Source: Rhodothermales bacterium
GTDB taxonomy: Bacteria; Bacteroidota; Rhodothermia; Rhodothermales; VXPQ01
Direction: 5' to 3'
DNA: 37,874 bases
NCBI GenBank assembly: GCA_040904565.1
Contig: JBBDTI010000045.1
Span: forward strand, 1 to 37,874
Both the position numbers and the translations under genes were made by a program. This document shows positions 26,122 through 37,874 of this stretch, piece by piece. The notes under the pieces are model-generated. The model made no database searches, had not been told where the DNA came from, and saw only the letters and a list, made by a program, of their open reading frames with translations. Numbering within the stretch: position 1 is the stretch's first letter; each line of letters begins with the position of its first letter.

Positions 26122-27624
26122 ATGCGTGATCAGCGCTTTATTCTGGCTCTGGATCAGGGGACGACGAGCTCTCGCGCCATCCTGTTCGATCACAGCGGGC
26201 ACATCCATGCGGTATCGCAGCGAGAGTTCAAGCAGATTTTTCCGAGGCCGGGCTGGGTCGAGCACGATCCCAATGAAATCTGGTCGACGCAGGCAGGTGT
26301 CGCCGCTGAGGTAATCGCCAAGGCGGGGATCCGTCCGCGCGACGTGGCGGCCATCGGCATTACCAATCAACGTGAAACGACCATCGTGTGGGACCGCACG
26401 ACCGGCCGGCCGATTCACAACGCCATCGTCTGGCAGGATCGTCGTACGGCCGGATACTGCGATTCGCTTCGCGACGCCGGATACGAAGATCTGATCCGTT
26501 CGAAGACGGGCTTGGTCATCGATTCCTATTTTTCCGGCACGAAGGTGCGATGGATGCTCGACAACGTAGACGGCGCGCGCGAGCGGGCTCGCCGCGGCGA
26601 GCTGGCATTCGGCACGGTCGATTCCTGGCTCATCTGGAAGCTCACGGATGGCCGCGTGCACGTCACGGACGTTACGAACGCATCGAGAACACTCCTTTAC
26701 AACATTCATCGGAACGAATGGGACGAGGAACTCCTCGATCTGCTCGAGGTGCCGGGGAGCATGCTCCCCGAGGTCCGATCCTCCAGTGAAGTGTATGCCG
26801 AGACTGCTGGAGACGCGATCTCCGCCAGCGTACCGATCGCAGGCATTGCGGGAGATCAGCAGGCCGCGCTGTTTGGACAGGTGTGCACCCGGCCGGGCAT
26901 GGTAAAAAACACATACGGCACCGGCTGTTTCATGCTCATGCAGACGGGCGAAGAAGCCGTTCAGTCCAAGAACAATCTCGTAACGACCATCGCCTGGAAG
27001 ATCGGCGACACGACGGAATACGCGCTCGAAGGCAGTATTTTCATCGCGGGGGCCGTCGTACAGTGGCTGCGCGACGGGCTGGGCATCATCCAGAAATCGT
27101 CGGACGTGGAACCGCTTGCACGTTCCGTCGACGACAACGGGGGCGTCTATTTCGTGCCGGCCTTCACGGGACTCGGAGCGCCGCACTGGGACCCGTACGC
27201 ACGCGGTGCCATCGTCGGATTGAGTCGCGGCACGAATGCGGGGCACATCGCGCGCGCCGCACTCGAAGGCATCGCGTTTCAAACGGTTGACGTCATCCGC
27301 GCGATGGAAGCCGATTCAGGACTCGACCTGGCTCAGCTACGGGTGGACGGTGGAGCAACGGCCAATAATCTGTTGATGCAGTTTCAGGCGGACCTGCTGG
27401 GGGTGCCCGTCATTCGTCCAAAAGTCTCCGAGACGACGGCGCTAGGCGCGGCCTATCTGGCAGGTCTGGCCGTGGGATTCTGGGCGGATCGTGATGAGAT
27501 TGCCGCGCAATGGAAAGAAGACCGGCGCTTCGAGCCGTCCATGGACCGAAATCGCGCCGACCACCTCATGACGCAGTGGACGCGGGCCCTCGAGCGCGCG
27601 GGATCGTGGGAGGTCGGATCGTGA
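26122..27624 (+). CDS. glpK: glycerol kinase
   Basis: [37 protein letters not shown] and [12 protein letters not shown]. Confidence 0.98.
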
Positions 27625-29246
27625 AGGAGTCCCTCTCTTTCAAGCGCGACGAGCTGGTATCGGTCGTGACGAATCGCTCAAGGCCGTGGGACGTGCTCGT
27701 CATTGGCGGTGGAGCGACCGGACTCGGAGCGGCCGTCGATGCGGCAAGTCGTGGATATGATACGCTGCTTCTGGAGCAGAGCGACTTCGGAAAGGGTACG
27801 TCGAGCCGCAGTACGAAGCTCGTCCACGGAGGCGTACGCTATCTCCAGCAGGGCAATCTGTCCCTCGTCTACGAAGCGCTTCACGAGCGCGGATTGCTTC
27901 TCGAAAATGCGCCTCACGTTACGACGAATCTGAATTTCGTCATCCCCTGTTATCGGTGGTGGGAAAAGCCGTTCTATGCGACCGGTTTGAAGCTGTACGA
28001 CCTGATGGCGGGGAAGCGTTCACTCGGGGGCTCCAGGGTGCTTTCGGCTCGAGGCGCCAGAGAACATCTTCCAACCGTACGATCGAAGGGGCTTCGGGGA
28101 GGCGTTCGCTACCAGGACGGTCAGTTCGACGATGCGCGCCTTGCCCTGAATCTGGCACAGACGGCCGTCGAACAGGGCGGCGTGGCGCTGAACTACGTCC
28201 GCGTAGATGCACTCGAGAAAGAGGGCGGGCGGATCTCCGGTGTCGTCGCGACAGACCTCGAGACAGGATCCGAGTGGACGATTTCAGCACGAGCGGTCGT
28301 CAATGCGACAGGCGTCTTCGGGGACACGATCCGGCGAATGGATCGGCCGGATGCAAAGCCGATGATTCAGCCGAGCCAGGGGGCGCATATCGTCGTCGAC
28401 CGATCGTTTCTACCGGGCGATTCCGCCCTCATGCTGCCGAAAACGGACGACGGCCGCGTCCTTTTTGCCGTTCCGTGGCACGAACGGGTTATTATCGGGA
28501 CGACGGATACGCCGCTCGACGACGTCACCCTCGAGCCGCGTGCACTTGAAGATGAGGTCACGTTTCTCGTCGAGCACGCGGATCGATATCTTGATCGGCC
28601 GCTCGGACGAGCCGACGTGCTCAGCGTGTTTGCCGGCTTGCGGCCGCTGGTCAGTACCGAGGATGATGAAGAGACCGCTGCCATATCGCGAGATCACGTG
28701 CTGTGCGTATCGCATAGCGGACTCATAACCATTACCGGAGGAAAGTGGACGACCTACCGCCGGATGGGCGAGGATACGATCGATAAGGCGGCTGAGCTCG
28801 CGGGGCTCGCCGCCCAGCCGTGCCGCACGCACTCCCTTCGCATTCACGGGTGGGTAGCATCCGTTGATCGCGATGCCGCGTACTCGATATATGGTGCCGA
28901 TGCCGAAGGCGTGGAGCAGGTCGTTCGTTCGACCGAGACCGGACCGGAGCTCGTACACGACGATCTTTCCGTTCGTGCCGGAGAGGTTCGGTGGATGGCA
29001 CGAAGGGAAATGGCTCGTACGGTGGACGACGTGCTGGCACGGCGCACCCGTTCCCTGCTGCTGGACGCGCGAGCGAGCGCCGAGGCCGCTCCAGCCGTTG
29101 CAGCGCTACTGGCGGACGAACTGGGAAAGGACGCGGACTGGGCCGACGACCAGGCGGCGTCGTTTCAGGAGATGGCAAAGTCTTATATATTGGACGCGCC
29201 GGGAGCGGGACCCGCAACGCCGGCACGCACGCGAGCGAATTCGTAG
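27621..29246 (+). CDS. glpD: FAD-dependent glycerol-3-phosphate dehydrogenase
   Basis: [24 protein letters not shown] and GGKWTTYR; GTGA overlap with glpK. Confidence 0.96.
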
Positions 29247-29289
29247 ATCCACTCGGGAGACCTCATCAACGGGGACTGAATAGCCACGC

Positions 29290-30261
29290 ATGCCTCACCT
29301 CTCTCGTCGACCCGCCGGCGCATTGCTGGCCGTGCTCCTGATGTTCTTCGTCGCGGAGTCCACCTGGGCCCAACTTCGAACCGGGGCATTCGCTCCCGAT
29401 GCGACCGGCCTATCTGACATCGATCTTCAGGGACACCGCGGCGCACGCGGTCTACTTCCGGAAAACACTGTTCCGTCCGTGCTGGCCGCGCTGGATCACG
29501 GTGTGGAAACGATCGAGCTGGATGTCGTCGTAAGCGGCGACGGCGAGGTCGTCGTATCCCACGAACCGTGGATGTCGAGCGTCATCTGCAGGGATCCGGA
29601 CGGTGCGCCGGTACGCGAAGATCAGGAGCGGGATTACAATCTATTCGAGATGAGCTACGCGGAGATCGCGGCCTTCGACTGCGGCGGCCGCGGACATCCG
29701 TCCTTTCCCGACCAGCGGCCGACGGCCGCGTCGAAGCCGCTCCTGCGCGACGTACTGCGCATTGCGGACGGATATGCGATGGTGACGGGCCGACCGCTGC
29801 CCCGGTACAACGTGGAAATAAAGTCGGCCCCCGAGAACGACGGGTTCTATCATCCGCCGCCGGATACGTTTGCCCGGCTCGTCTACGACGTATTGGCGGA
29901 CGAAGATGTCCGGGATCGGTCCACCATTCAGTCCTTCGATGTGCGATCGGTCCGGTCCGTCCGATCCATCGATGCGACGCAGACGGTGGCCCTTCTGGTA
30001 AACAACGACGACGGCTTCGAAGCGAATCTTCGGCAGCTCGGTTTCCTGCCCGATATCTACAGTCCGAATCAGCGTCTCGTCGACGCCGCGCTCGTCGAGG
30101 CCGCTCGTGCCGTAGGTATGGCCGTGGTGCCGTGGACGGTCAACGCCCCCGAGGACATGAGGCGATTGCTCGATCTCGGCGTAGACGGGCTCATTACGGA
30201 TTACCCGGACCGTGGACGAGACGTCGTCGACGCATATCTTCGCGGCCGGCAAGACAACTAA
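29290..30261 (+). CDS. glpQ: glycerophosphodiester phosphodiesterase, exported
   Basis: GHRGARGLLPENT, ELDV, NVEIK, IQSFD, WTVN and GVDGLITDYP; signal peptide ending TWA/Q. Confidence 0.93.
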   Translation: MPHLSRRPAGALLAVLLMFFVAESTWAQLRTGAFAPDATGLSDIDLQGHRGARGLLPENTVPSVLAALDHGVETIELDVVVSGDGEVVVSHEPWMSSVICRDPDGAPVREDQERDYNLFEMSYAEIAAFDCGGRGHPSFPDQRPTAASKPLLRDVLRIADGYAMVTGRPLPRYNVEIKSAPENDGFYHPPPDTFARLVYDVLADEDVRDRSTIQSFDVRSVRSVRSIDATQTVALLVNNDDGFEANLRQLGFLPDIYSPNQRLVDAALVEAARAVGMAVVPWTVNAPEDMRRLLDLGVDGLITDYPDRGRDVVDAYLRGRQDN

Positions 30262-30295
30262 TAATGTGGCGTTCACCATTCATCCCCCGTGCATC

Positions 30296-31024
30296 ATGCC
30301 TCCTTTTCTAGCTGAATTCGTCGGTACCGCGATCCTCCTCTTGCTCGGCGACGGCGTCGTTGCCAATGTGTTGCTGAAAGGAACGAAGGGGGAAAATTCC
30401 GGATGGATCGTCATAACGATGGGGTGGGGCATGGCCGTGTTCGTCGCCGTGTTCTGTGTGGCGGCCTTTTCCGGTGCGCACATCAATCCGGCCGTAACGA
30501 TCGGACTCGCGGCGGCGGGCAAGTTCTCCTGGGCCGCGGTACCGTCCTATCTCACGGCGCAGTTTCTCGGCGGTGCCTTCGGGGCGTTCCTCGTGTGGCT
30601 GCACTATCGGCCCCACTTCGTCGTAACGGAGAACACGGACCTGAAGCTGGCGGTCTTCTGTACGGGACCGGCGATTCGCGACACGCCGGCGAATTTCATT
30701 TCGGAGGCGATTGGGACGTTCGTGCTGGTATTTGCCGTTCTGTATCTGGCGGCGCCTGAGGTAGGTCTCGGGGCACTTGACGCGCTACCGGTCGGACTCG
30801 TCGTCCTCGTCATCGGTCTGTCACTGGGTGGAACAACCGGTTACGCCATCAATCCGGCTCGCGACCTGGGCCCACGCATCATGCACGCCGTGCTCCCGAT
30901 GGGCGCCAAGCGGGACAGCGACTGGAGCTATTCGTGGATTCCCGTCGTCGCCCCCGTCGTCGGTGGTGCGCTGGCCGCGCTGGCCTTTCACGCGTTGACG
31001 TTGTCGTCGACGGTAGGGGGATGA
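30296..31024 (+). CDS. glpF: glycerol uptake facilitator (MIP family)
   Basis: SGAHINPAVT and GYAINPARD (the NPARD aquaglyceroporin signature). Confidence 0.96.
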   Translation: MPPFLAEFVGTAILLLLGDGVVANVLLKGTKGENSGWIVITMGWGMAVFVAVFCVAAFSGAHINPAVTIGLAAAGKFSWAAVPSYLTAQFLGGAFGAFLVWLHYRPHFVVTENTDLKLAVFCTGPAIRDTPANFISEAIGTFVLVFAVLYLAAPEVGLGALDALPVGLVVLVIGLSLGGTTGYAINPARDLGPRIMHAVLPMGAKRDSDWSYSWIPVVAPVVGGALAALAFHALTLSSTVGG

Positions 31025-31097
31025 TTCTGCATGATATGGCACGCCGATGCGTGTATATTTACAGGTAGGGCGTTCCATCCACCATCCGTCTCCCGAA

Positions 31098-31637
31098 ATG
31101 GCTCACATCAAACTACCGGAAGGACTGCCCGGCATCGTCGGTCTGCTCGAAGAATATCCCGCGACAGGGAAGCACCTGCGGGGTCTCGCGCAGGAACTTT
31201 TGCGCGGCCCGTCTCCGTTAACGCCTGGAGAGAGGGAGCTTATCGCAGCGTTCGTATCGTCCGAGAACAACTGCTACTTCTGCGCGAACTCCCACAGCGC
31301 GGCGGCGCGCCATTTGCTTGGCGAGGATGCTTCGGTTGTGGAACAGGTCAAGCTCGGCATCGAGCAGGCTGAGATCAGTGGGAAGATGAAGGCGCTCCTC
31401 TCCATTGCTAAGAAGGTTCAGCTGGGTGAGCGTCGGGTGGCGGACGAAGACGTCGAGCGAGCTCGGGACGAGGGGGCGACGGACAAAGAGATTCACGATA
31501 CGGTTCTGATCGCCGCCGCCTTCTGCATGTACAATCGCTACGTCGACGGGCTTGCAACCTGGGCCCCGAAAAACCCGGAACTCTACGATCGGCACGGAGC
31601 CGAGCTTGCATCCGCGGGATACGTTACATCGAATTGA
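31098..31637 (+). CDS. AhpD/carboxymuconolactone decarboxylase-like peroxidase-related protein
   Basis: ERELIAAFVSSENNCYFCANSH (E-x-CxxC-x3-H) and 'AAAFCMYNRYVDGL'. Confidence 0.9.
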   Translation: MAHIKLPEGLPGIVGLLEEYPATGKHLRGLAQELLRGPSPLTPGERELIAAFVSSENNCYFCANSHSAAARHLLGEDASVVEQVKLGIEQAEISGKMKALLSIAKKVQLGERRVADEDVERARDEGATDKEIHDTVLIAAAFCMYNRYVDGLATWAPKNPELYDRHGAELASAGYVTSN

Positions 31638-31647
31638 TGCCGCTGTT

Positions 31648-33441
31648 ATGAAGAAGACGGTAACGAAAGTCGTCGTATCGATTTTCTTCGTGGCGCTGTT
31701 GGCCTTTCCCGTGGTCGACCGCTACCTCCAGGAGAGCGAGGCGCGGAATCAGGCCGGACTGTCATCGGAAGAGGCGCTGAACCGGTACGGTTTTTACCTG
31801 GAGGAGGTCTCTGCGTCGATCGGCATCGATTTTGAACACGAGGCGCCGGTCTTCGATGAGAAGCTCGAGCACATCATGCCCCAGGTCGCGTCGCTCGGGG
31901 CTGCCGTTTCGGTGGTGGATTACGACCGGGACGGACTGCAAGATCTCTACGTCACCTCAAGCGGGATCGGCGCCGACAATGCGCTGTACCGAAATCTTGG
32001 TGATGGTACGTTCGTGAACGTCGCCCGGGAAATGGGCTTGGGCGATGTGAATCGCGAGGGCACGGGCGTCTCGACGGGGGCCGTGTGGGGCGATTTCGAC
32101 AACGACGGATTTGAAGACCTGTTTCTCTATAAATGGGGGCGCTCCGAGCTCTATCGGAACGACGAGGGCGAAGGGTTTACGCGCGTCACCGGTCCGTCCG
32201 GGTTGCCTGACTGGGCCAACGTGAATGCCGGGATCTGGCTCGACTACGACCGGGACGGACATCTGGATCTCTTCTTCGCGGGATACTATCCGGAAGACCT
32301 CAATCTTTGGGAGATCGAACACACGCGCATCATGCCGGAGAGCTTCGAATATGCTTCGAACGGCGGCCGGATGTATCTATTTCGCGGCCACGGCGACGGA
32401 ACGTTCGAGGACGTGACGGAGGAGATGGGTCTGCTGGAGAGCCGGCAGTGGACGATGGCGGTTTCCGCGGCCGATCTCAGGGAGTCCGGGTATCCGGATC
32501 TGTTCATCGCCAACGATTACGGCACGGACCAGGTGTTTTTCAACAAGGAGGGAGAGGGGTTCGTACCGGCAGGCGAGCAAACCCAGGTCGGCTTTACGCC
32601 CAAGAGCGGGATGAACGTGGCGTTCGGCGATCTGGCGAATGAAGGAGCATTCTCCGTCTACGTTACGAACATTTCCGAGCCGGGCGTGCTCGTCCAGGGA
32701 AACAATCTCTGGGTACCGAGCGGGTCGGGGGATGCGCTGCGGTACCGCAACATGGCCAGCACGCTCAATGTTGAGATGGGCGGCTGGAGCTACGGCGCGC
32801 AGTTCGGCGACATCAACAATGACGGTCTGGTTGACCTGTTTGCTACCAACGGGTATGTCTCGGCGGATCGAACCGGCAGCTACTGGTACGACTTCTCGAA
32901 GGTCGCCGGGGGCAACGAGGCGATCATTTCAGACGCCAGGAACTGGCCGGCCATGGACGGCCGGAGCCTGTCCGGTTACCAGCTCAAGAAATTGTGGCTC
33001 AATACGGGGCAGTGGCGGTTCCAGCAGGTGGCGCAGGCCGTCGGCGTAACGGAGACGTTCGACGGGCGATCCGTCGTGTTTGCCGATCTCTGGAACCGCG
33101 GCGTGCTCGACATTATCGTGGCGCATCAGCGAGGTCCTCTGCTCGTCTACCGGAACGCGACGGCACCCGATCGCGAATGGATCGAATTTGAACTGTCGGG
33201 GACGGCGAGCAACCGCAGCGCGATCGGCGCGCAGGTCGAGTTGTACTGGAACGGGCAGCGCCAGCTTCAGCAGGTCTCGGGCGGGTCCGGGTTTAGCGCA
33301 CAGAATCAGCGTCGCGTTCATTTCGGTCTGGGCTCGGACGCCGACATTGAGAAGGTGGTCATCCGATGGCCGTCCGGGCGTACCCAGACACTAACAGGCG
33401 TCGAGCCGGGTCGTATTCATCGGATAACGGAACCGGCATAA
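31648..33441 (+). CDS. CRTAC1-family FG-GAP beta-propeller with C-terminal ASPIC/UnbV domain, N-terminally anchored
   Basis: Repeats DYDRDGLQDLYV, DFDNDGFEDLFL, DYDRDGHLDLFF and DINNDGLVDLF; C-terminal NRSAIGA...GSGFSAQ...HFGLG...IRWPSG. Confidence 0.92.
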   Translation: MKKTVTKVVVSIFFVALLAFPVVDRYLQESEARNQAGLSSEEALNRYGFYLEEVSASIGIDFEHEAPVFDEKLEHIMPQVASLGAAVSVVDYDRDGLQDLYVTSSGIGADNALYRNLGDGTFVNVAREMGLGDVNREGTGVSTGAVWGDFDNDGFEDLFLYKWGRSELYRNDEGEGFTRVTGPSGLPDWANVNAGIWLDYDRDGHLDLFFAGYYPEDLNLWEIEHTRIMPESFEYASNGGRMYLFRGHGDGTFEDVTEEMGLLESRQWTMAVSAADLRESGYPDLFIANDYGTDQVFFNKEGEGFVPAGEQTQVGFTPKSGMNVAFGDLANEGAFSVYVTNISEPGVLVQGNNLWVPSGSGDALRYRNMASTLNVEMGGWSYGAQFGDINNDGLVDLFATNGYVSADRTGSYWYDFSKVAGGNEAIISDARNWPAMDGRSLSGYQLKKLWLNTGQWRFQQVAQAVGVTETFDGRSVVFADLWNRGVLDIIVAHQRGPLLVYRNATAPDREWIEFELSGTASNRSAIGAQVELYWNGQRQLQQVSGGSGFSAQNQRRVHFGLGSDADIEKVVIRWPSGRTQTLTGVEPGRIHRITEPA

Positions 33442-34250
33442 TGCCCTGGGGAATCAGGTACGACCGGCGCTACACGGCGCCGTTGTTCATCACGTCCATT
33501 CTTATCGGCGCTCACCTGTCCTTCGGGATTCTGGAGAGCTACCGGGCCATTCTGCTCGCTATCGGCTCGGCCGTCGTGGCGGAGGTCATACTCTCCCGCC
33601 TTCTACGGGATCGCTGGCCCCACCTTTCGAGCTCGTACATCTCGGGCATCAGTGTAGGCATCCTGATTCGGACGCCGTTGTACTGGCCGTTCGCCGTTTG
33701 CAGCCTTCTGACGATCACGTCGAAATACGTGCTCCGATTTAGGGGTAAGCATCTATGGAATCCGTCCAACTTCGGTATCTGCGCGATGCTGTTTCTGGCG
33801 CCGCACGCCGTGGCGCCGCTCAGTATCCAGTGGGGCAACAATCTGTGGCCGATGGTCGTGATTTGGATCCTGGGATCGGTGATCATCTGGCGCATCCGTC
33901 GCTTCCATATCTGCGCGACCTATGTGGCCGGATTTCTCCTCTTCGCGTTCACGCGTACGCTCATTACGGGACACAGCTTCCTGGCGGAAGTCGCTCCGAT
34001 CACGGGACCGATGTATCAGCTGTTCGTCTTCTTCATGATCACCGACCCGAAGACGACCGTGTCGTCCAGACGAGGGCGGATGGCCGTGGCGTTCGCCATC
34101 GCGTTCGTTGAGATGCTGTTCCGCCTGGGTGAGGTGGTTCACGCCCCGTTCTACGCACTGTTCGTCGTCGGACCGATCTCGCTGCTGGTGGAAATGTGGT
34201 GGGAAGGCCGCCGGAACGCTGTTACGTCACCTTCAGCGGTCCAGGCCTGA
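33441..34250 (+). CDS. RnfD/NqrB-like (UnbU-like) integral membrane protein
   Basis: Multi-TM protein; SKYVLRFRGKHLWNPSNFG and FFMITDPKT match the NqrB/RnfD 'NPA..G' and 'FMATDP' regions; TAATG coupling to the upstream gene. Confidence 0.8.
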   Translation: MPWGIRYDRRYTAPLFITSILIGAHLSFGILESYRAILLAIGSAVVAEVILSRLLRDRWPHLSSSYISGISVGILIRTPLYWPFAVCSLLTITSKYVLRFRGKHLWNPSNFGICAMLFLAPHAVAPLSIQWGNNLWPMVVIWILGSVIIWRIRRFHICATYVAGFLLFAFTRTLITGHSFLAEVAPITGPMYQLFVFFMITDPKTTVSSRRGRMAVAFAIAFVEMLFRLGEVVHAPFYALFVVGPISLLVEMWWEGRRNAVTSPSAVQA

Positions 34251-35323: not shown

Positions 35324-35755
35324 ATGAGCAGGAGTGCTTCCCCCCGGAGGGATTTTCTATCGCCAGCAGAGCGAAGCGAGAGAATGAGCCGGATTAAGCA
35401 CAAGGATACGGAGCCTGAGATGACGGTTCGGCGGCTCGTTCATTCTTTGGGATATAGATACCGACTTCATAGACAAGACTTGCCGGGAACTCCCGACCTC
35501 GTTTTCGCAAGTCGTCGTAAGGTTATCTTTGTTCACGGTTGCTTTTGGCACCTACACGAACCATGCGATCATTACCGACTGCCGCGGTCGGACCAATGGA
35601 TGGACAAGCTTCGGGCAAATAAGGAGCGAGATAGGCGCCATCGAGCCGCGCTTAGTCGTAGTGGCTGGGATGTACATGTGACATGGGAGTGCGAGTTGTC
35701 CAAGAAGAACCTGGATCACATCGCCGACGATTTGATCGCTTTCCTCGAAGCGTAG
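35324..35755 (+). CDS. vsr: very short patch repair endonuclease
   Basis: RSERMSRIKHKDTEPE, GYRYRLH, LPGTPDLVF, IFVHGCFWH, N.ERD and WECE. Confidence 0.96.
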   Translation: MSRSASPRRDFLSPAERSERMSRIKHKDTEPEMTVRRLVHSLGYRYRLHRQDLPGTPDLVFASRRKVIFVHGCFWHLHEPCDHYRLPRSDQWMDKLRANKERDRRHRAALSRSGWDVHVTWECELSKKNLDHIADDLIAFLEA

Positions 35756-35804
35756 GATCGATCCGCGACTCGGATTAGGAAAATTAATCTCGAATCAGAT
35801 AGGA

Positions 35805-36989
35805 ATGATGAACAGCATTGAGTTATTCGCGGGCGTAGGCGGTCTTGCCACGGGATTGGCAGAGGCGGGCTTTACGCACGATGCGGTCATTGAATGGGAC
35901 GATGTCGCTTGTGAGACGATTCGCTTCAATAAGCAAAGGGGTCATCCTCTAGTATGTGACTGGAGGGTGATTGAAGGTGACGTACGCGAGATGGATTACA
36001 AGTCACTTGGCGAGATCGCGCTTGTTGCCGGTGGCCCTCCTTGTCAACCGTTTAGTATTGGCGGAAAGCATAAAGGACGAGAGGACAATCGAGACATGCT
36101 TCCCGTGGCGGTTGATATAGTCCGGCAAACTCGTCCGAGGGCGTTCGTTTTTGAAAACGTAAAGGGCCTAACGAGGGCAAAGTATGAGACCTACCTCGAC
36201 TACGTCCTTCTCCGACTTTCGTATCCCGAGATCATGCGTAAGGACGACGAGAATGTCAACGAGCATCTCGATCGCCTGGAACAGCATAAGACAGATGGGT
36301 CCATCGAAGGACTGTCGTACAACGTCATCTTTCGCGTTCTTAATGCCGCTGATTACGGAGTGCCACAGCACCGCCACCGCGTCTTCATCGTAGGCTTCAG
36401 AAATGACGTCGGAGCCGACTGGCACTTTCCGCGACCGACGCACACCGAGGATGCCCTTCTTTATGACCAGTGGGTAACGGGTGAGTATTGGGAAAGGCAT
36501 GAGGTTCCAAGGGGCGATCGTCCGGCTATTCCGAAACGCAAGCTGCGCGCGATCGAGAAACTCAAGAGCGGAATAGCCGAGTTCATGGGCAAGCCTTGGC
36601 AAACGGTAAGAGACGCGATTGGTGACCTACCTGATCCTCGTGAGTGTGACATAGAGTACCTCAACCACGAGTACAATGACGGTGCTCGTATTTACCCCGG
36701 CCATACAGGAAGTCCGTTGGACAAACCTTCCAAGGCCCTAAAGGCGGGCGTTCATGGCGTACCCGGAGGCGAGAACATGCTGAGGCGTGTGGACGGATCC
36801 GTAAGGTACTTCACCGTGAGGGAGGCCGCGCGAATTCAAACGTTTCCTGACGACTATGCGTTTGTCGGCGCTTGGAGCCGATCAATGCGCGGATTGGGGA
36901 ATGCCGTGCCAGTGAAGCTTGCCTCAATTATCGGGCAGAGTATCGCTCAACGTTTAGCTGGTGATCAGTTGCGGCGAACAGCGGCGTGA
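35805..36989 (+). CDS. DNA (cytosine-5)-methyltransferase
   Basis: Motifs I ELFAGVGG, IV GGPPCQPFS, VI FENVKG, VIII Q.R.RVF, IX RIQTFPD and X GNAVP; TRD 'KAGVHGVPGGENML' recalled from M.Eco29kI-like enzymes. Confidence 0.97.
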   Translation: MMNSIELFAGVGGLATGLAEAGFTHDAVIEWDDVACETIRFNKQRGHPLVCDWRVIEGDVREMDYKSLGEIALVAGGPPCQPFSIGGKHKGREDNRDMLPVAVDIVRQTRPRAFVFENVKGLTRAKYETYLDYVLLRLSYPEIMRKDDENVNEHLDRLEQHKTDGSIEGLSYNVIFRVLNAADYGVPQHRHRVFIVGFRNDVGADWHFPRPTHTEDALLYDQWVTGEYWERHEVPRGDRPAIPKRKLRAIEKLKSGIAEFMGKPWQTVRDAIGDLPDPRECDIEYLNHEYNDGARIYPGHTGSPLDKPSKALKAGVHGVPGGENMLRRVDGSVRYFTVREAARIQTFPDDYAFVGAWSRSMRGLGNAVPVKLASIIGQSIAQRLAGDQLRRTAA

Positions 36990-37123
36990 CCTAAGGCACG
37001 CAAGTTGCTCTAGTTCTGCGATATTGAGCTGGTCTGGACGCCCGCCATTTGCGGGCGCCCGTGATCAGTCATATCTTGGCTAATTCACGCTCACTCGGAT
37101 GTCAGGACTGCGACGTGCACGCA

Positions 37124-37874
37124 ATGCCGGATTTTGACCGGAAAAAGTTCATTGAGGATCTAGAGTCAATCATTGATGGACTGCCACCGTCCGACGCGTA
37201 TCGAAGAAGCGGCGATCACTATGATCGTAAGAAGCTTCGCCGAATTGTGAAACGTGTGGTGAAGTTCAGCCAGGAGCTTGATCCGTACAGGCATCCTCGG
37301 GTCCACGATCCTGCGGATCCCTCCGTCGCGGGTCGACATTTGGCGAATGATCTCGAGGGCTCTGAAAGCGAGAATCTGGCGGATCTCGAAGGATTCTGGG
37401 GATCCGGGATATACGCCCTGTACTACAAGGGCGACCACCCTGCGTACGTGATTATCTCGGGTGCGGATGTCCCGATCTACGTTGGCAAGGCAAATCCGTC
37501 TGATTTCACGGCGACTAACCCTGTTAACCAGGGGCGCAAACTCTATAATCGAATTCGCGAGCATCGGTCAAGTATTCAAGAGTCGAATTCGTACGTCAGT
37601 GATCTCAGTAAGGCTTTGAGAAGTGAGAGGGGACTTCATTCACTCGCGGTTTCGGACTTTGAATGCTCGTACCTCGTCGTGCCCAGTGCCTACGCTGAAG
37701 CGGCGGAGACGGTGTTAATTGAGCACTACAAGCCCGTCTGGAACAAGGAAACTCAGCTCTGCGAAGGGATTGGCAAGCATGGAGATAGCGCCTCAACGCG
37801 CGCGAATACGAGGTCAAGATGGGACACGATCCACCCGGGACGCTCTTGGACACTTGGCGAGAATAACATCGACC
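37124..37874 (+). CDS. Eco29kI-family GIY-YIG type II restriction endonuclease (3' end beyond the window)
   Basis: Manually translated open frame from ATG 37124: GSGIYALYYKG...PIYVGKA...LYNRIREH...AETVLIEHYKPVWN...G.GKH...SRWDTIHPGRSW; no stop before the window end. Confidence 0.92.
   Translation, partial: MPDFDRKKFIEDLESIIDGLPPSDAYRRSGDHYDRKKLRRIVKRVVKFSQELDPYRHPRVHDPADPSVAGRHLANDLEGSESENLADLEGFWGSGIYALYYKGDHPAYVIISGADVPIYVGKANPSDFTATNPVNQGRKLYNRIREHRSSIQESNSYVSDLSKALRSERGLHSLAVSDFECSYLVVPSAYAEAAETVLIEHYKPVWNKETQLCEGIGKHGDSASTRANTRSRWDTIHPGRSWTLGENNID

Follow-up and report, generated by a model that had tools for sequence, protein, structure and literature searches.

A probable UnbV/UnbU-type inner-membrane complex with an AhpD-like accessory in a Rhodothermales bacterium, from a gene pair widespread without polyketide synthase

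A stretch of 37,874 nucleotides (hereafter the window) from a Rhodothermales bacterium (GenBank assembly GCA_040904565.1, contig JBBDTI010000045.1, positions 1 to 37,874 of the forward strand) contains three adjoining genes, g1, g2 and g3, which encode an AhpD/CMD-family protein and counterparts of UnbV (E4) and UnbU (E5) of enediyne biosynthesis, respectively. We consider it reasonably probable that g2 and g3 form a two-subunit UnbV/UnbU-type inner-membrane complex, representing a widespread form free of polyketide synthase (PKS; hereafter the orphan form), to which g1 is added as an AhpD-like accessory. The original prediction for this locus had described three co-oriented, coupled genes with a 10-nt gap and a TAATG overlap, and the open reading frames (ORFs) and coordinates agreed, with g1 and g2 separated by positions 31638-31647. 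Pfam and sequence analysis likewise confirmed the described products, namely a CxxC-H protein without a signal peptide, an anchored FG-GAP propeller with an ASPIC/UnbV domain and a protein with multiple transmembrane (TM) helices, and the CMD, UnbV_ASPIC and NQR2_RnfD_RnfE families were all matched.

The g2-g3 pair is the core of the locus. More than 8000 homologues of g3 were scored, and the profile search yielded 2548 representatives at E ≤ 0.001, 1359 at E ≤ 1e-10 and 232 at E ≤ 1e-30. With one genome taken per species, g3 relatives occurred in at least 587 species genomes (at least 600 stretches, 587 confirmed). From these confirmed genomes, 80 loci were kept from other phyla, to which all locus counts for other phyla refer; they included Acidobacteriota (many Pyrinomonadaceae, and Terriglobia), Planctomycetota, Gemmatimonadota, Balneolaceae, Verrucomicrobiia and others. 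In 77 of the 80, a same-strand gene orthologous to g2 (54-68% identity) ended at most 400 nt before g3; two of the remaining three had no upstream DNA and the third (L035) carried its g2 orthologue 5 kb away. The chosen end of g2 and the start of g3 shared a base in 11 of 30 other loci. Just after g3, a second CRTAC1 paralogue (27-31% identity) was encoded in 48 of the 76 loci whose downstream sequence reached 1.5 kb or more, and a protein of approximately 1175 residues, with TPR, FG-GAP and UnbV_ASPIC domains in the example scanned, was encoded just before g2 in 63 of the 80. The closest named homologues of g3 were from Rhodothermales, where NCBI lists an 84%-identical protein for Rhodocaloribacter litoris. 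The distribution of g3 within this order was patchy: it was present in 15 of 151 genomes (one of these being a 30-residue fragment at a contig end) and in 14 of 73 genera. Phylum-wide, at E ≤ 1e-40, it was found in 18 of 401 genomes and 10 of 180 genera.

The g2 protein was matched by FG-GAP_3 in six stretches (E 2e-34) and by UnbV_ASPIC at its C-terminus (E 3.4e-23), and its propeller bears four Dx[DN]xDG-type motifs. The N-terminus consists of a basic stretch followed by a 16-residue hydrophobic helix, with no lipobox. An AlphaFold2 (AF2) model of g2 reached a predicted local distance difference test (pLDDT) of 86.5, and the best Foldseek match was murine CRTAC1 (9etn_A; E 6.4e-31, TMq 0.68, root-mean-square deviation 3.8 Å over 595 alignment columns), to which g2 was also related by sequence (E 1.4e-16). 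The host genome (assembly of 4.02 Mb in 95 contigs, 95% complete) contained 15 UnbV_ASPIC matches vs. one g3. All seven g2 orthologues shown have an N-terminal anchor of the same kind, and at least six of the stand-alone paralogues open with a lipobox-like signal. In earlier work, ASPIC/UnbV is listed as an expanded paralogue family (PMC3174227) and a CRTAC1-family gene is mentioned beside hydrazine-synthase-like genes (PMC12758564). As a side observation, a fragment of the flavin transferase ApbE lies at a contig end right after one stand-alone UnbV_ASPIC paralogue (G000:C17:9394-10209), and the host genome gave three ApbE matches despite having no Rnf/Nqr.

The membrane protein g3 was assigned by Pfam to NQR2_RnfD_RnfE (PF03116; 36.6 bits vs. 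a cut-off of 27.7), while its score with the NCBIfam model rnfD was 21.5 bits, far below the cut-off of 207. RnfD chains were its best Foldseek matches (8rbq_D, 9eri_D and 7zc6_D; E ~1e-5, TMq 0.70-0.72), NqrB came next, and urea transporters followed far behind (E 0.04 and weaker, TMq 0.39-0.46). By profile, the g3 family matched RnfD of PDB 8ahx only at E 0.0077 and in the C-terminal third. Global alignment with hhalign against a reference set of 27 genuine RnfD/NqrB sequences from the same order plus E. coli RsxD gave a probability of 80% and an E-value of 1.6e-6. Two motifs were common to both families: G-x-H-x-W-N-P-S-N in g3 vs. G-Q-N-P-F-N-P-A in RnfD/NqrB, and F-F-M-I-T-D-P-K-T vs. F-F-I-L-T-D-P-V-T. 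The flavinylation motif D-x-x-[ST]-x-A-T-[PSA]-L was found in all 28 of the reference sequences; its threonine is presumably the T187 of RsxD that bears flavin mononucleotide (FMN). The best-conserved residues of g3 among 201 homologues were H104 (196), N107, N110, D202 (195) and H156 (182), all five of which lie at or near the cytoplasmic face according to the topology given by lysine and arginine residues in the loops. No other PF03116 gene was found in the 95%-complete host genome, and most g3-bearing genomes of the order were without a genuine RnfD/NqrB, only G014 and G046 having both.

Modelling of g2 and g3 together, which had been proposed with the original prediction, argued for a physical association. 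The interface score ipSAE, which expresses model confidence and is not a measurement, was 0.78, 0.77 and 0.76 in three runs vs. 0.00 for the best of three controls; the mark applied was attained by 116 of 157 solved complexes, compared with 2 of 215 mismatched pairs, a calibration that is rough here as our own alignments were supplied. Partner pLDDT was 80, and at least 92% of the contacts were common to the runs. The contacting residues of g3 (28-32, 77-80, 119-135, 176-189 and 228-233) fall in every second loop and thus on one face, whose loops contain a single lysine or arginine vs. 18 on the opposite face; this charge distribution indicates that the contact face is periplasmic and that both termini of g3 are inside. 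In the model, g2 residues 3-29 pack against residues 83-97 and 115-119 of g3 (TM4/TM5), and the remaining g2 stretches touching g3 (231-235, 316-318, 344-351 and 411-434) all lie inside motifs conserved in the g2 orthologues: M-P-E-S-F-E-Y-A-x-N-G-G, P-K-S-G-M-N ... Q-G-N-N-L-W, and a segment of approximately 30 residues, S-Y-W-Y-D-F-S ... N-W-P-A-M. When g2 was folded alone, confidence was low only at 229-234 and 413-440. Diverged versions of the contact motifs were present in four PKS- or DUF1702-linked UnbV proteins adjoining a UnbU-like gene, and the motifs were missing from 11 of the 14 stand-alone paralogues of the host genome, the other three carrying an unrelated insert. Natural fusions were also found, in which a g3-like domain is followed by one more TM helix and a propeller (P0230, 881 aa; P0249, 607 aa, cut; P0124, 822 aa, with a junction resembling a lipoprotein signal); since the C-terminus of g3 is inside, a fused propeller would need the extra helix for export. 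Together, the model and these patterns suggest that g2 and g3 are probably subunits of a single membrane complex, for which they define a topology and an interface.

The g1 protein was matched by the Pfam family CMD (E 8.6e-12) and by the NCBIfam model TIGR01926, 'peroxidase-related enzyme' (82.5 bits vs. a cut-off of 81.8), and its top PDB match by sequence was Mlr4105 (3c1l; E 9e-17). It contains the motif C59-x-x-C62-x-x-x-H66, whose CxxC...H is invariant across 14 aligned orthologues, and it has no N-terminal hydrophobic segment or signal sequence; it is predicted to be cytoplasmic. Within the order, 9 of 13 relatives had a g1 orthologue (61-75% identity) beside the pair, in three layouts: g1-g2-g3 as in the window (three loci), divergent from g2 (one locus) and g2-g3-g1 (five loci). 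Among the four relatives without an adjoining g1, three loci end less than 2 kb from g3. At E ≤ 1e-50, 12 of the order's 151 genomes carried a g1 orthologue, which was accompanied by g3 in 11 of them (the exception being G092); as the genomes are kin and not independent, co-occurrence is given as counts with no statistical test. In the other phyla, strict g1 orthologues (56-64% identity) flanked the module in four loci, all Acidobacteriota, and weaker CMD matches lay near it in six further loci. The predicted recurrence of the whole trio was therefore borne out within the order and did not extend to the 76 loci of other phyla where g1 is absent. Judging from sequence and gene order, g1 is a genuine lineage-linked accessory that stays close to the pair despite shuffled gene order, outside the universal core; its absence from several relatives and from most other phyla indicates that it is inessential to the pair. 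Neither the trio nor the window genes that were scanned included an AhpC partner gene.

The relationship to the enediyne proteins was apparent in direct comparison: g3 shared 31-36% identity over 61-67% of its length with the Streptomyces plasmid 'enediyne biosynthesis protein UnbU' (tblastn, 43 records; E 1e-8 to 2e-11), and some g3 orthologues are named 'enediyne biosynthesis protein E5' by JGI. The cassette on the S. clavuligerus plasmid encodes DUF1702, a VCBS/UnbV protein (634 aa), UnbU (346 aa), a type I PKS (1984 aa) and a thioesterase. The order of the cassette is given in PMC5181780; PMC9992847 still describes the UnbV/UnbU genes as 'of unknown function', and PMC10760148 refers to 'unique enediyne biosynthesis proteins'. 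No paper on orphan UnbV/UnbU pairs was found in the literature collection searched. In a tree from a quick search, for which the fusion proteins were trimmed to residues 1-300, 29 orphans formed one tight clade (SH-aLRT support 98), apart from the clades of PKS/DUF1702-linked proteins (100), fusions (99) and genuine RnfD/NqrB (100); the Metabacillus sequence described below was on a long branch of unsure placement.

As the original prediction had noted, neither PksE nor a thioesterase nor another rnf/nqr gene was found among the genes of the window. Genome-wide, the ketosynthase-family matches were restricted to three FabF-size frames of 410-460 aa, with no frame of PksE size, and neither a PksE cluster nor an rnf operon that could account for the genes was found elsewhere in the 95%-complete assembly. 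DUF1702 was not matched in the host genome either, which is a weak negative as the search controls were silent too. The presence of only FabF-size ketosynthases and the lack of a DUF1702 match indicate that the pair works here outside polyketide synthesis, and its recurrence without PKS in many phyla upholds the proposal that it acts outside enediyne synthesis. Elsewhere in the same order, two loci have the arrangement UnbV, UnbU (335 aa), ketosynthase (L157, G007:C44; L158, G025:C740), both ending inside the ketosynthase gene; these starts of enediyne-type cassettes lie outside the actinomycete groups in which PMC5181780 and PMC10760148 surveyed such cassettes. G025 carries both the orphan pair and such a cassette. 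On a Serratia plasmid (L125, NZ_MT039191.1), a g3-like gene is accompanied by DUF1702, LuxR, VCBS, methyltransferase and NAD(P) oxidoreductase genes with no PKS, the methyltransferase being annotated as an L-histidine N-alpha-methyltransferase.

Other lineages place different genes beside g3. On a Metabacillus plasmid, a membrane-anchored AhpC/TSA (TlpA-like) redoxin with a C-Q-A-C motif overlaps the start of a g3-like gene of 265 aa, and there is no propeller. In 22 of the 80 loci of other phyla, two extra genes accompany the module (upstream in 19 and downstream in 3). One encodes a polytopic protein of 487-507 aa with 15-16 cysteines and the ferredoxin-type motif C-x-x-C-x-x-C-x-x-x-C; the other encodes a protein of 207 aa bearing a signal peptide and a C-terminal anchor, with histidine predicted at its mature N-terminus. 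Examples are L168 (8209-11355) and L165 (8821-11470), and some loci add a YtkA-like protein and a His-rich membrane protein. This Cys-rich and His-containing group may constitute a metal- or electron-handling set; the host genome has neither of the two genes. A 562-aa g3 frame in L047 was considered as a further fusion and discarded, as its tail was of low complexity with no added domain, and it was treated as a read-through frame. The partners of g3-like genes thus suggest a leaning towards redox chemistry, which none of them demonstrates; the attachment of other redox or Cys-rich partners in other lineages makes a redox role plausible, yet unproven.

In the arrangement that we favour, g3 is a pared-down protein of the RnfD/NqrB fold with both termini inside, and g2 would be held by its own N-terminal helix on TM4/TM5 of g3, with three conserved propeller loops sitting on the periplasmic loops of its partner. 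RnfG and NqrC are single-TM-anchored periplasmic partners on the outer face of RnfD and NqrB, and by analogy the layout of g2 on g3 would resemble theirs. The complex may carry out or assist a redox reaction of a small or lipophilic molecule on the outer side of the cytoplasmic membrane. In such a reaction, a non-covalent cofactor or the substrate itself could make g3 the conduit or binding pocket, with no part for covalent FMN or a cysteine relay. As a cytoplasmic AhpD-type dithiol protein that accompanies the pair within the order and in certain Acidobacteriota, g1 may be an accessory that handles peroxides or disulfides on the cytoplasmic side of the membrane. H104, N107, N110, H156 and D202 of g3 are located on that side.

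Several observations weigh against this account. The AF2 model of g3 was of moderate quality (pLDDT 69), and the resemblance of its fold to urea transporters leaves room for a channel role. The stretch of approximately 50 residues with the flavinylation motif falls opposite a gap in g3 in the hhalign alignment, and the cysteines C114 and C158 were both present in only 103 of the 201 homologues, being replaced otherwise by S, T, V or A. The g2 protein of the window has no cysteine at all, and there was no invariant cysteine column in 29 orthologues; motif and cysteine conservation analyses identified no cofactor site in the pair. CRTAC1 is not known to bind a redox cofactor or to be an enzyme. 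The Cys-rich polytopic protein had no Pfam match at E ≤ 0.001, and its likeness to NapH/CcoG-type proteins is presumed from its motifs. As regards g1, three genomes of the order that carry g3 (G012, G023 and G106) yielded no orthologue, it was missing at one locus with full flanks (L119), and a strict orthologue was absent from 76 of the 80 loci of other phyla. Extra g1 paralogues occur in tandem arrays of two or three (G001:C5:15714-17386, G086:C475 and G086:C263), the first two of which lie directly 5' of a TonB-dependent receptor gene and away from the pair. Lastly, because the relatives are kin, the co-occurrence counts overstate the support for linkage.

These observations bear differently on the alternatives. 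The chief rival, which we regard as unlikely, is a non-redox transport or receptor module, in which g3 would be a small-molecule channel, g2 its periplasmic binding or gating partner and g1 merely co-regulated. In its favour, urea and ammonium channels are relatives of the RnfD/NqrB fold, urea transporters come after RnfD/NqrB in the fold search, the CRTAC1/integrin-type propellers found by fold search are binding proteins, and no cofactor motif was found in the pair. However, the urea-transporter matches were weak (TMq as given above), redox or Cys-rich partners recur in unrelated lineages, and the PKS-linked paralogues belong to a cassette that is credited with oxidative tailoring. That cassette is also reported (Gui et al. 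2024) to yield iodinated polyene and polyyne products. The original prediction had instead suggested a possible relay of electrons from the cytoplasmic CxxC protein g1 via the membrane subunit g3 to the exported propeller g2; spelt out, g3 would be a flavin-bearing, RnfD-like protein and g2 the terminal redox enzyme. Such a relay would accommodate the cytoplasmic nature of g1 and its linkage to the pair, the fold of g3, the orientation of its best-conserved polar residues towards the cytoplasm and the pairing of a TlpA-like redoxin with a g3-like gene in Metabacillus, but it is disfavoured by the deletion of the flavinylation loop and by the lack of a conserved cysteine pair in g3 and of any conserved cysteine in the CRTAC1-fold g2. 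With g1 also absent from most loci of other phyla, where hosts without a g1-like gene look common, we consider it decidedly improbable. A DsbD/CcdA-type thiol relay through g3 was rejected as well, since C114 and C158 are not conserved and the Metabacillus homologue has one cysteine.

An origin of the locus as the remnant or outpost of an enediyne or polyyne gene cluster with its PKS at another genomic site is hardly credible. The naming of orthologues as 'enediyne biosynthesis protein E5' and the true UnbV-UnbU-ketosynthase cassettes in two genomes of the order would be in line with this, but the genome itself has no PKS-size ketosynthase frame and no DUF1702 match (the latter a weak negative), the orphans form a clade apart from the PKS/DUF1702-linked proteins in the quick tree, G025 carries both types, and identities of 60% and more across phyla are unlike decay. 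The looser redox interpretation, in which the UnbV/UnbU-type complex takes part in redox chemistry through neither of the relays above, survives as plausible but unproven.

A broader proposal can be put forward only tentatively. The UnbV/UnbU-type pair might be an old and very widespread two-subunit membrane oxidoreductase built on an RnfD scaffold, with a CRTAC1 propeller replacing RnfG, into which different lineages plug different electron or thiol feeders: the AhpD-like g1 at this locus, a ferredoxin-type Cys-rich membrane protein in Acidobacteriota and a TlpA-like redoxin on a Bacillota plasmid. Enediyne E4/E5 would then be a specialised offshoot, and the action of the orphan complex on a membrane-soluble substrate would show how E4/E5 process the PksE polyene. 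E3, E4 and E5 have so far counted among the unexplained proteins of enediyne cassettes, and the present results place E4/E5-type proteins in a much larger, strongly conserved family working without PKS. The g3 family has lost the hallmark flavin site of RnfD while it keeps recruiting redox or Cys-rich partners. The routine annotation of such genes as 'RnfD' is also corrected by these results. The orphan pair would offer a tractable, non-toxic model system for a long-standing question of enediyne biosynthesis.

The positions of the features are compiled in Table 1. A sigma-70 promoter scan returned one site vs. 1.6 expected by chance, with a consensus that may not suit the phylum; this lone promoter-like match (31031-31059) is just 5' of g1 and includes TATATTT approximately 40 nt before the g1 start. 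Immediately 5' of g1, a glycerol-use cluster (26122-31024) encodes an FGGY kinase, a GlpD-type FAD oxidoreductase, a glycerophosphodiester phosphodiesterase and a MIP channel; among the relatives, only one, of the same family (L109), likewise has the phosphodiesterase gene ahead of g1. Approximately 1 kb after g3, positions 35324-37873 encode a Vsr mismatch endonuclease, a C-5 cytosine methylase and an Eco29kI-type restriction enzyme, which is cut by the window end. The G+C content of this segment is 0.51-0.55 vs. approximately 0.60, and it is probably a mobile restriction-modification island.

Table 1. Features of the g1-g2-g3 locus, in window coordinates.
Feature	Position	Strand	Source or detail
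g1, AhpD/CMD-family protein, 179 aa	31098..31637	+	ORF list, Pfam, NCBIfam
g2, UnbV(E4)-type CRTAC1-fold protein, 597 aa	31648..33441	+	ORF list, Pfam, AF2, Foldseek
g2 residues 3-29, predicted uncleaved signal-anchor helix	31654..31734	+	complex-model interface list
g3, UnbU(E5)-like 10-TM protein, 269 aa	33441..34250	+	Pfam, Foldseek
TAATG stop/start overlap of g2/g3	33439..33443	+	TAA 33439-33441, ATG 33441-33443

Compared with known systems, the pair combines familiar parts in a different setting. From RnfD/NqrB, g3 differs in the deletion of the stretch of approximately 50 residues around the flavinylated threonine; its genome has no other rnf/nqr gene, and its partner is a CRTAC1 propeller instead of an FMN-binding domain. 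Vertebrate CRTAC1 (9etn) shares with g2 the fold and the succession of propeller and C-terminal UnbV_ASPIC domain, but the identity is only 18%, and g2 adds a TM anchor, three partner-contact loops and the coupling to a membrane protein. The AhpD/CMD 'peroxidase-related' proteins (TIGR01926; PDB 3c1l, 2pfx, 2oyo and 2prr) have the AhpD core, C-x-x-C-x-x-x-H motif and similar size of g1, which forms its own tightly conserved subfamily co-occurring with the UnbV/UnbU-type pair. The closest counterpart is the enediyne pair UnbV(E4)/UnbU(E5), which likewise comprises an anchored FG-GAP and UnbV_ASPIC protein followed by an RnfD-like membrane protein, with diverged g3-contact loops, and which in the S. 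clavuligerus cassette has the same gene order with overlapping ends as g2 and g3. In contrast to the cassette E3/E4/E5/E/E10, the window has no PksE, thioesterase or DUF1702 (E3), g3 is shorter than UnbU (269 vs. 335-346 aa), and the pair has an AhpD-like partner. Overall, the orphan pairs are far more conserved (54-91% identity across phyla) and far more widespread than the UnbV/UnbU of enediyne cassettes.

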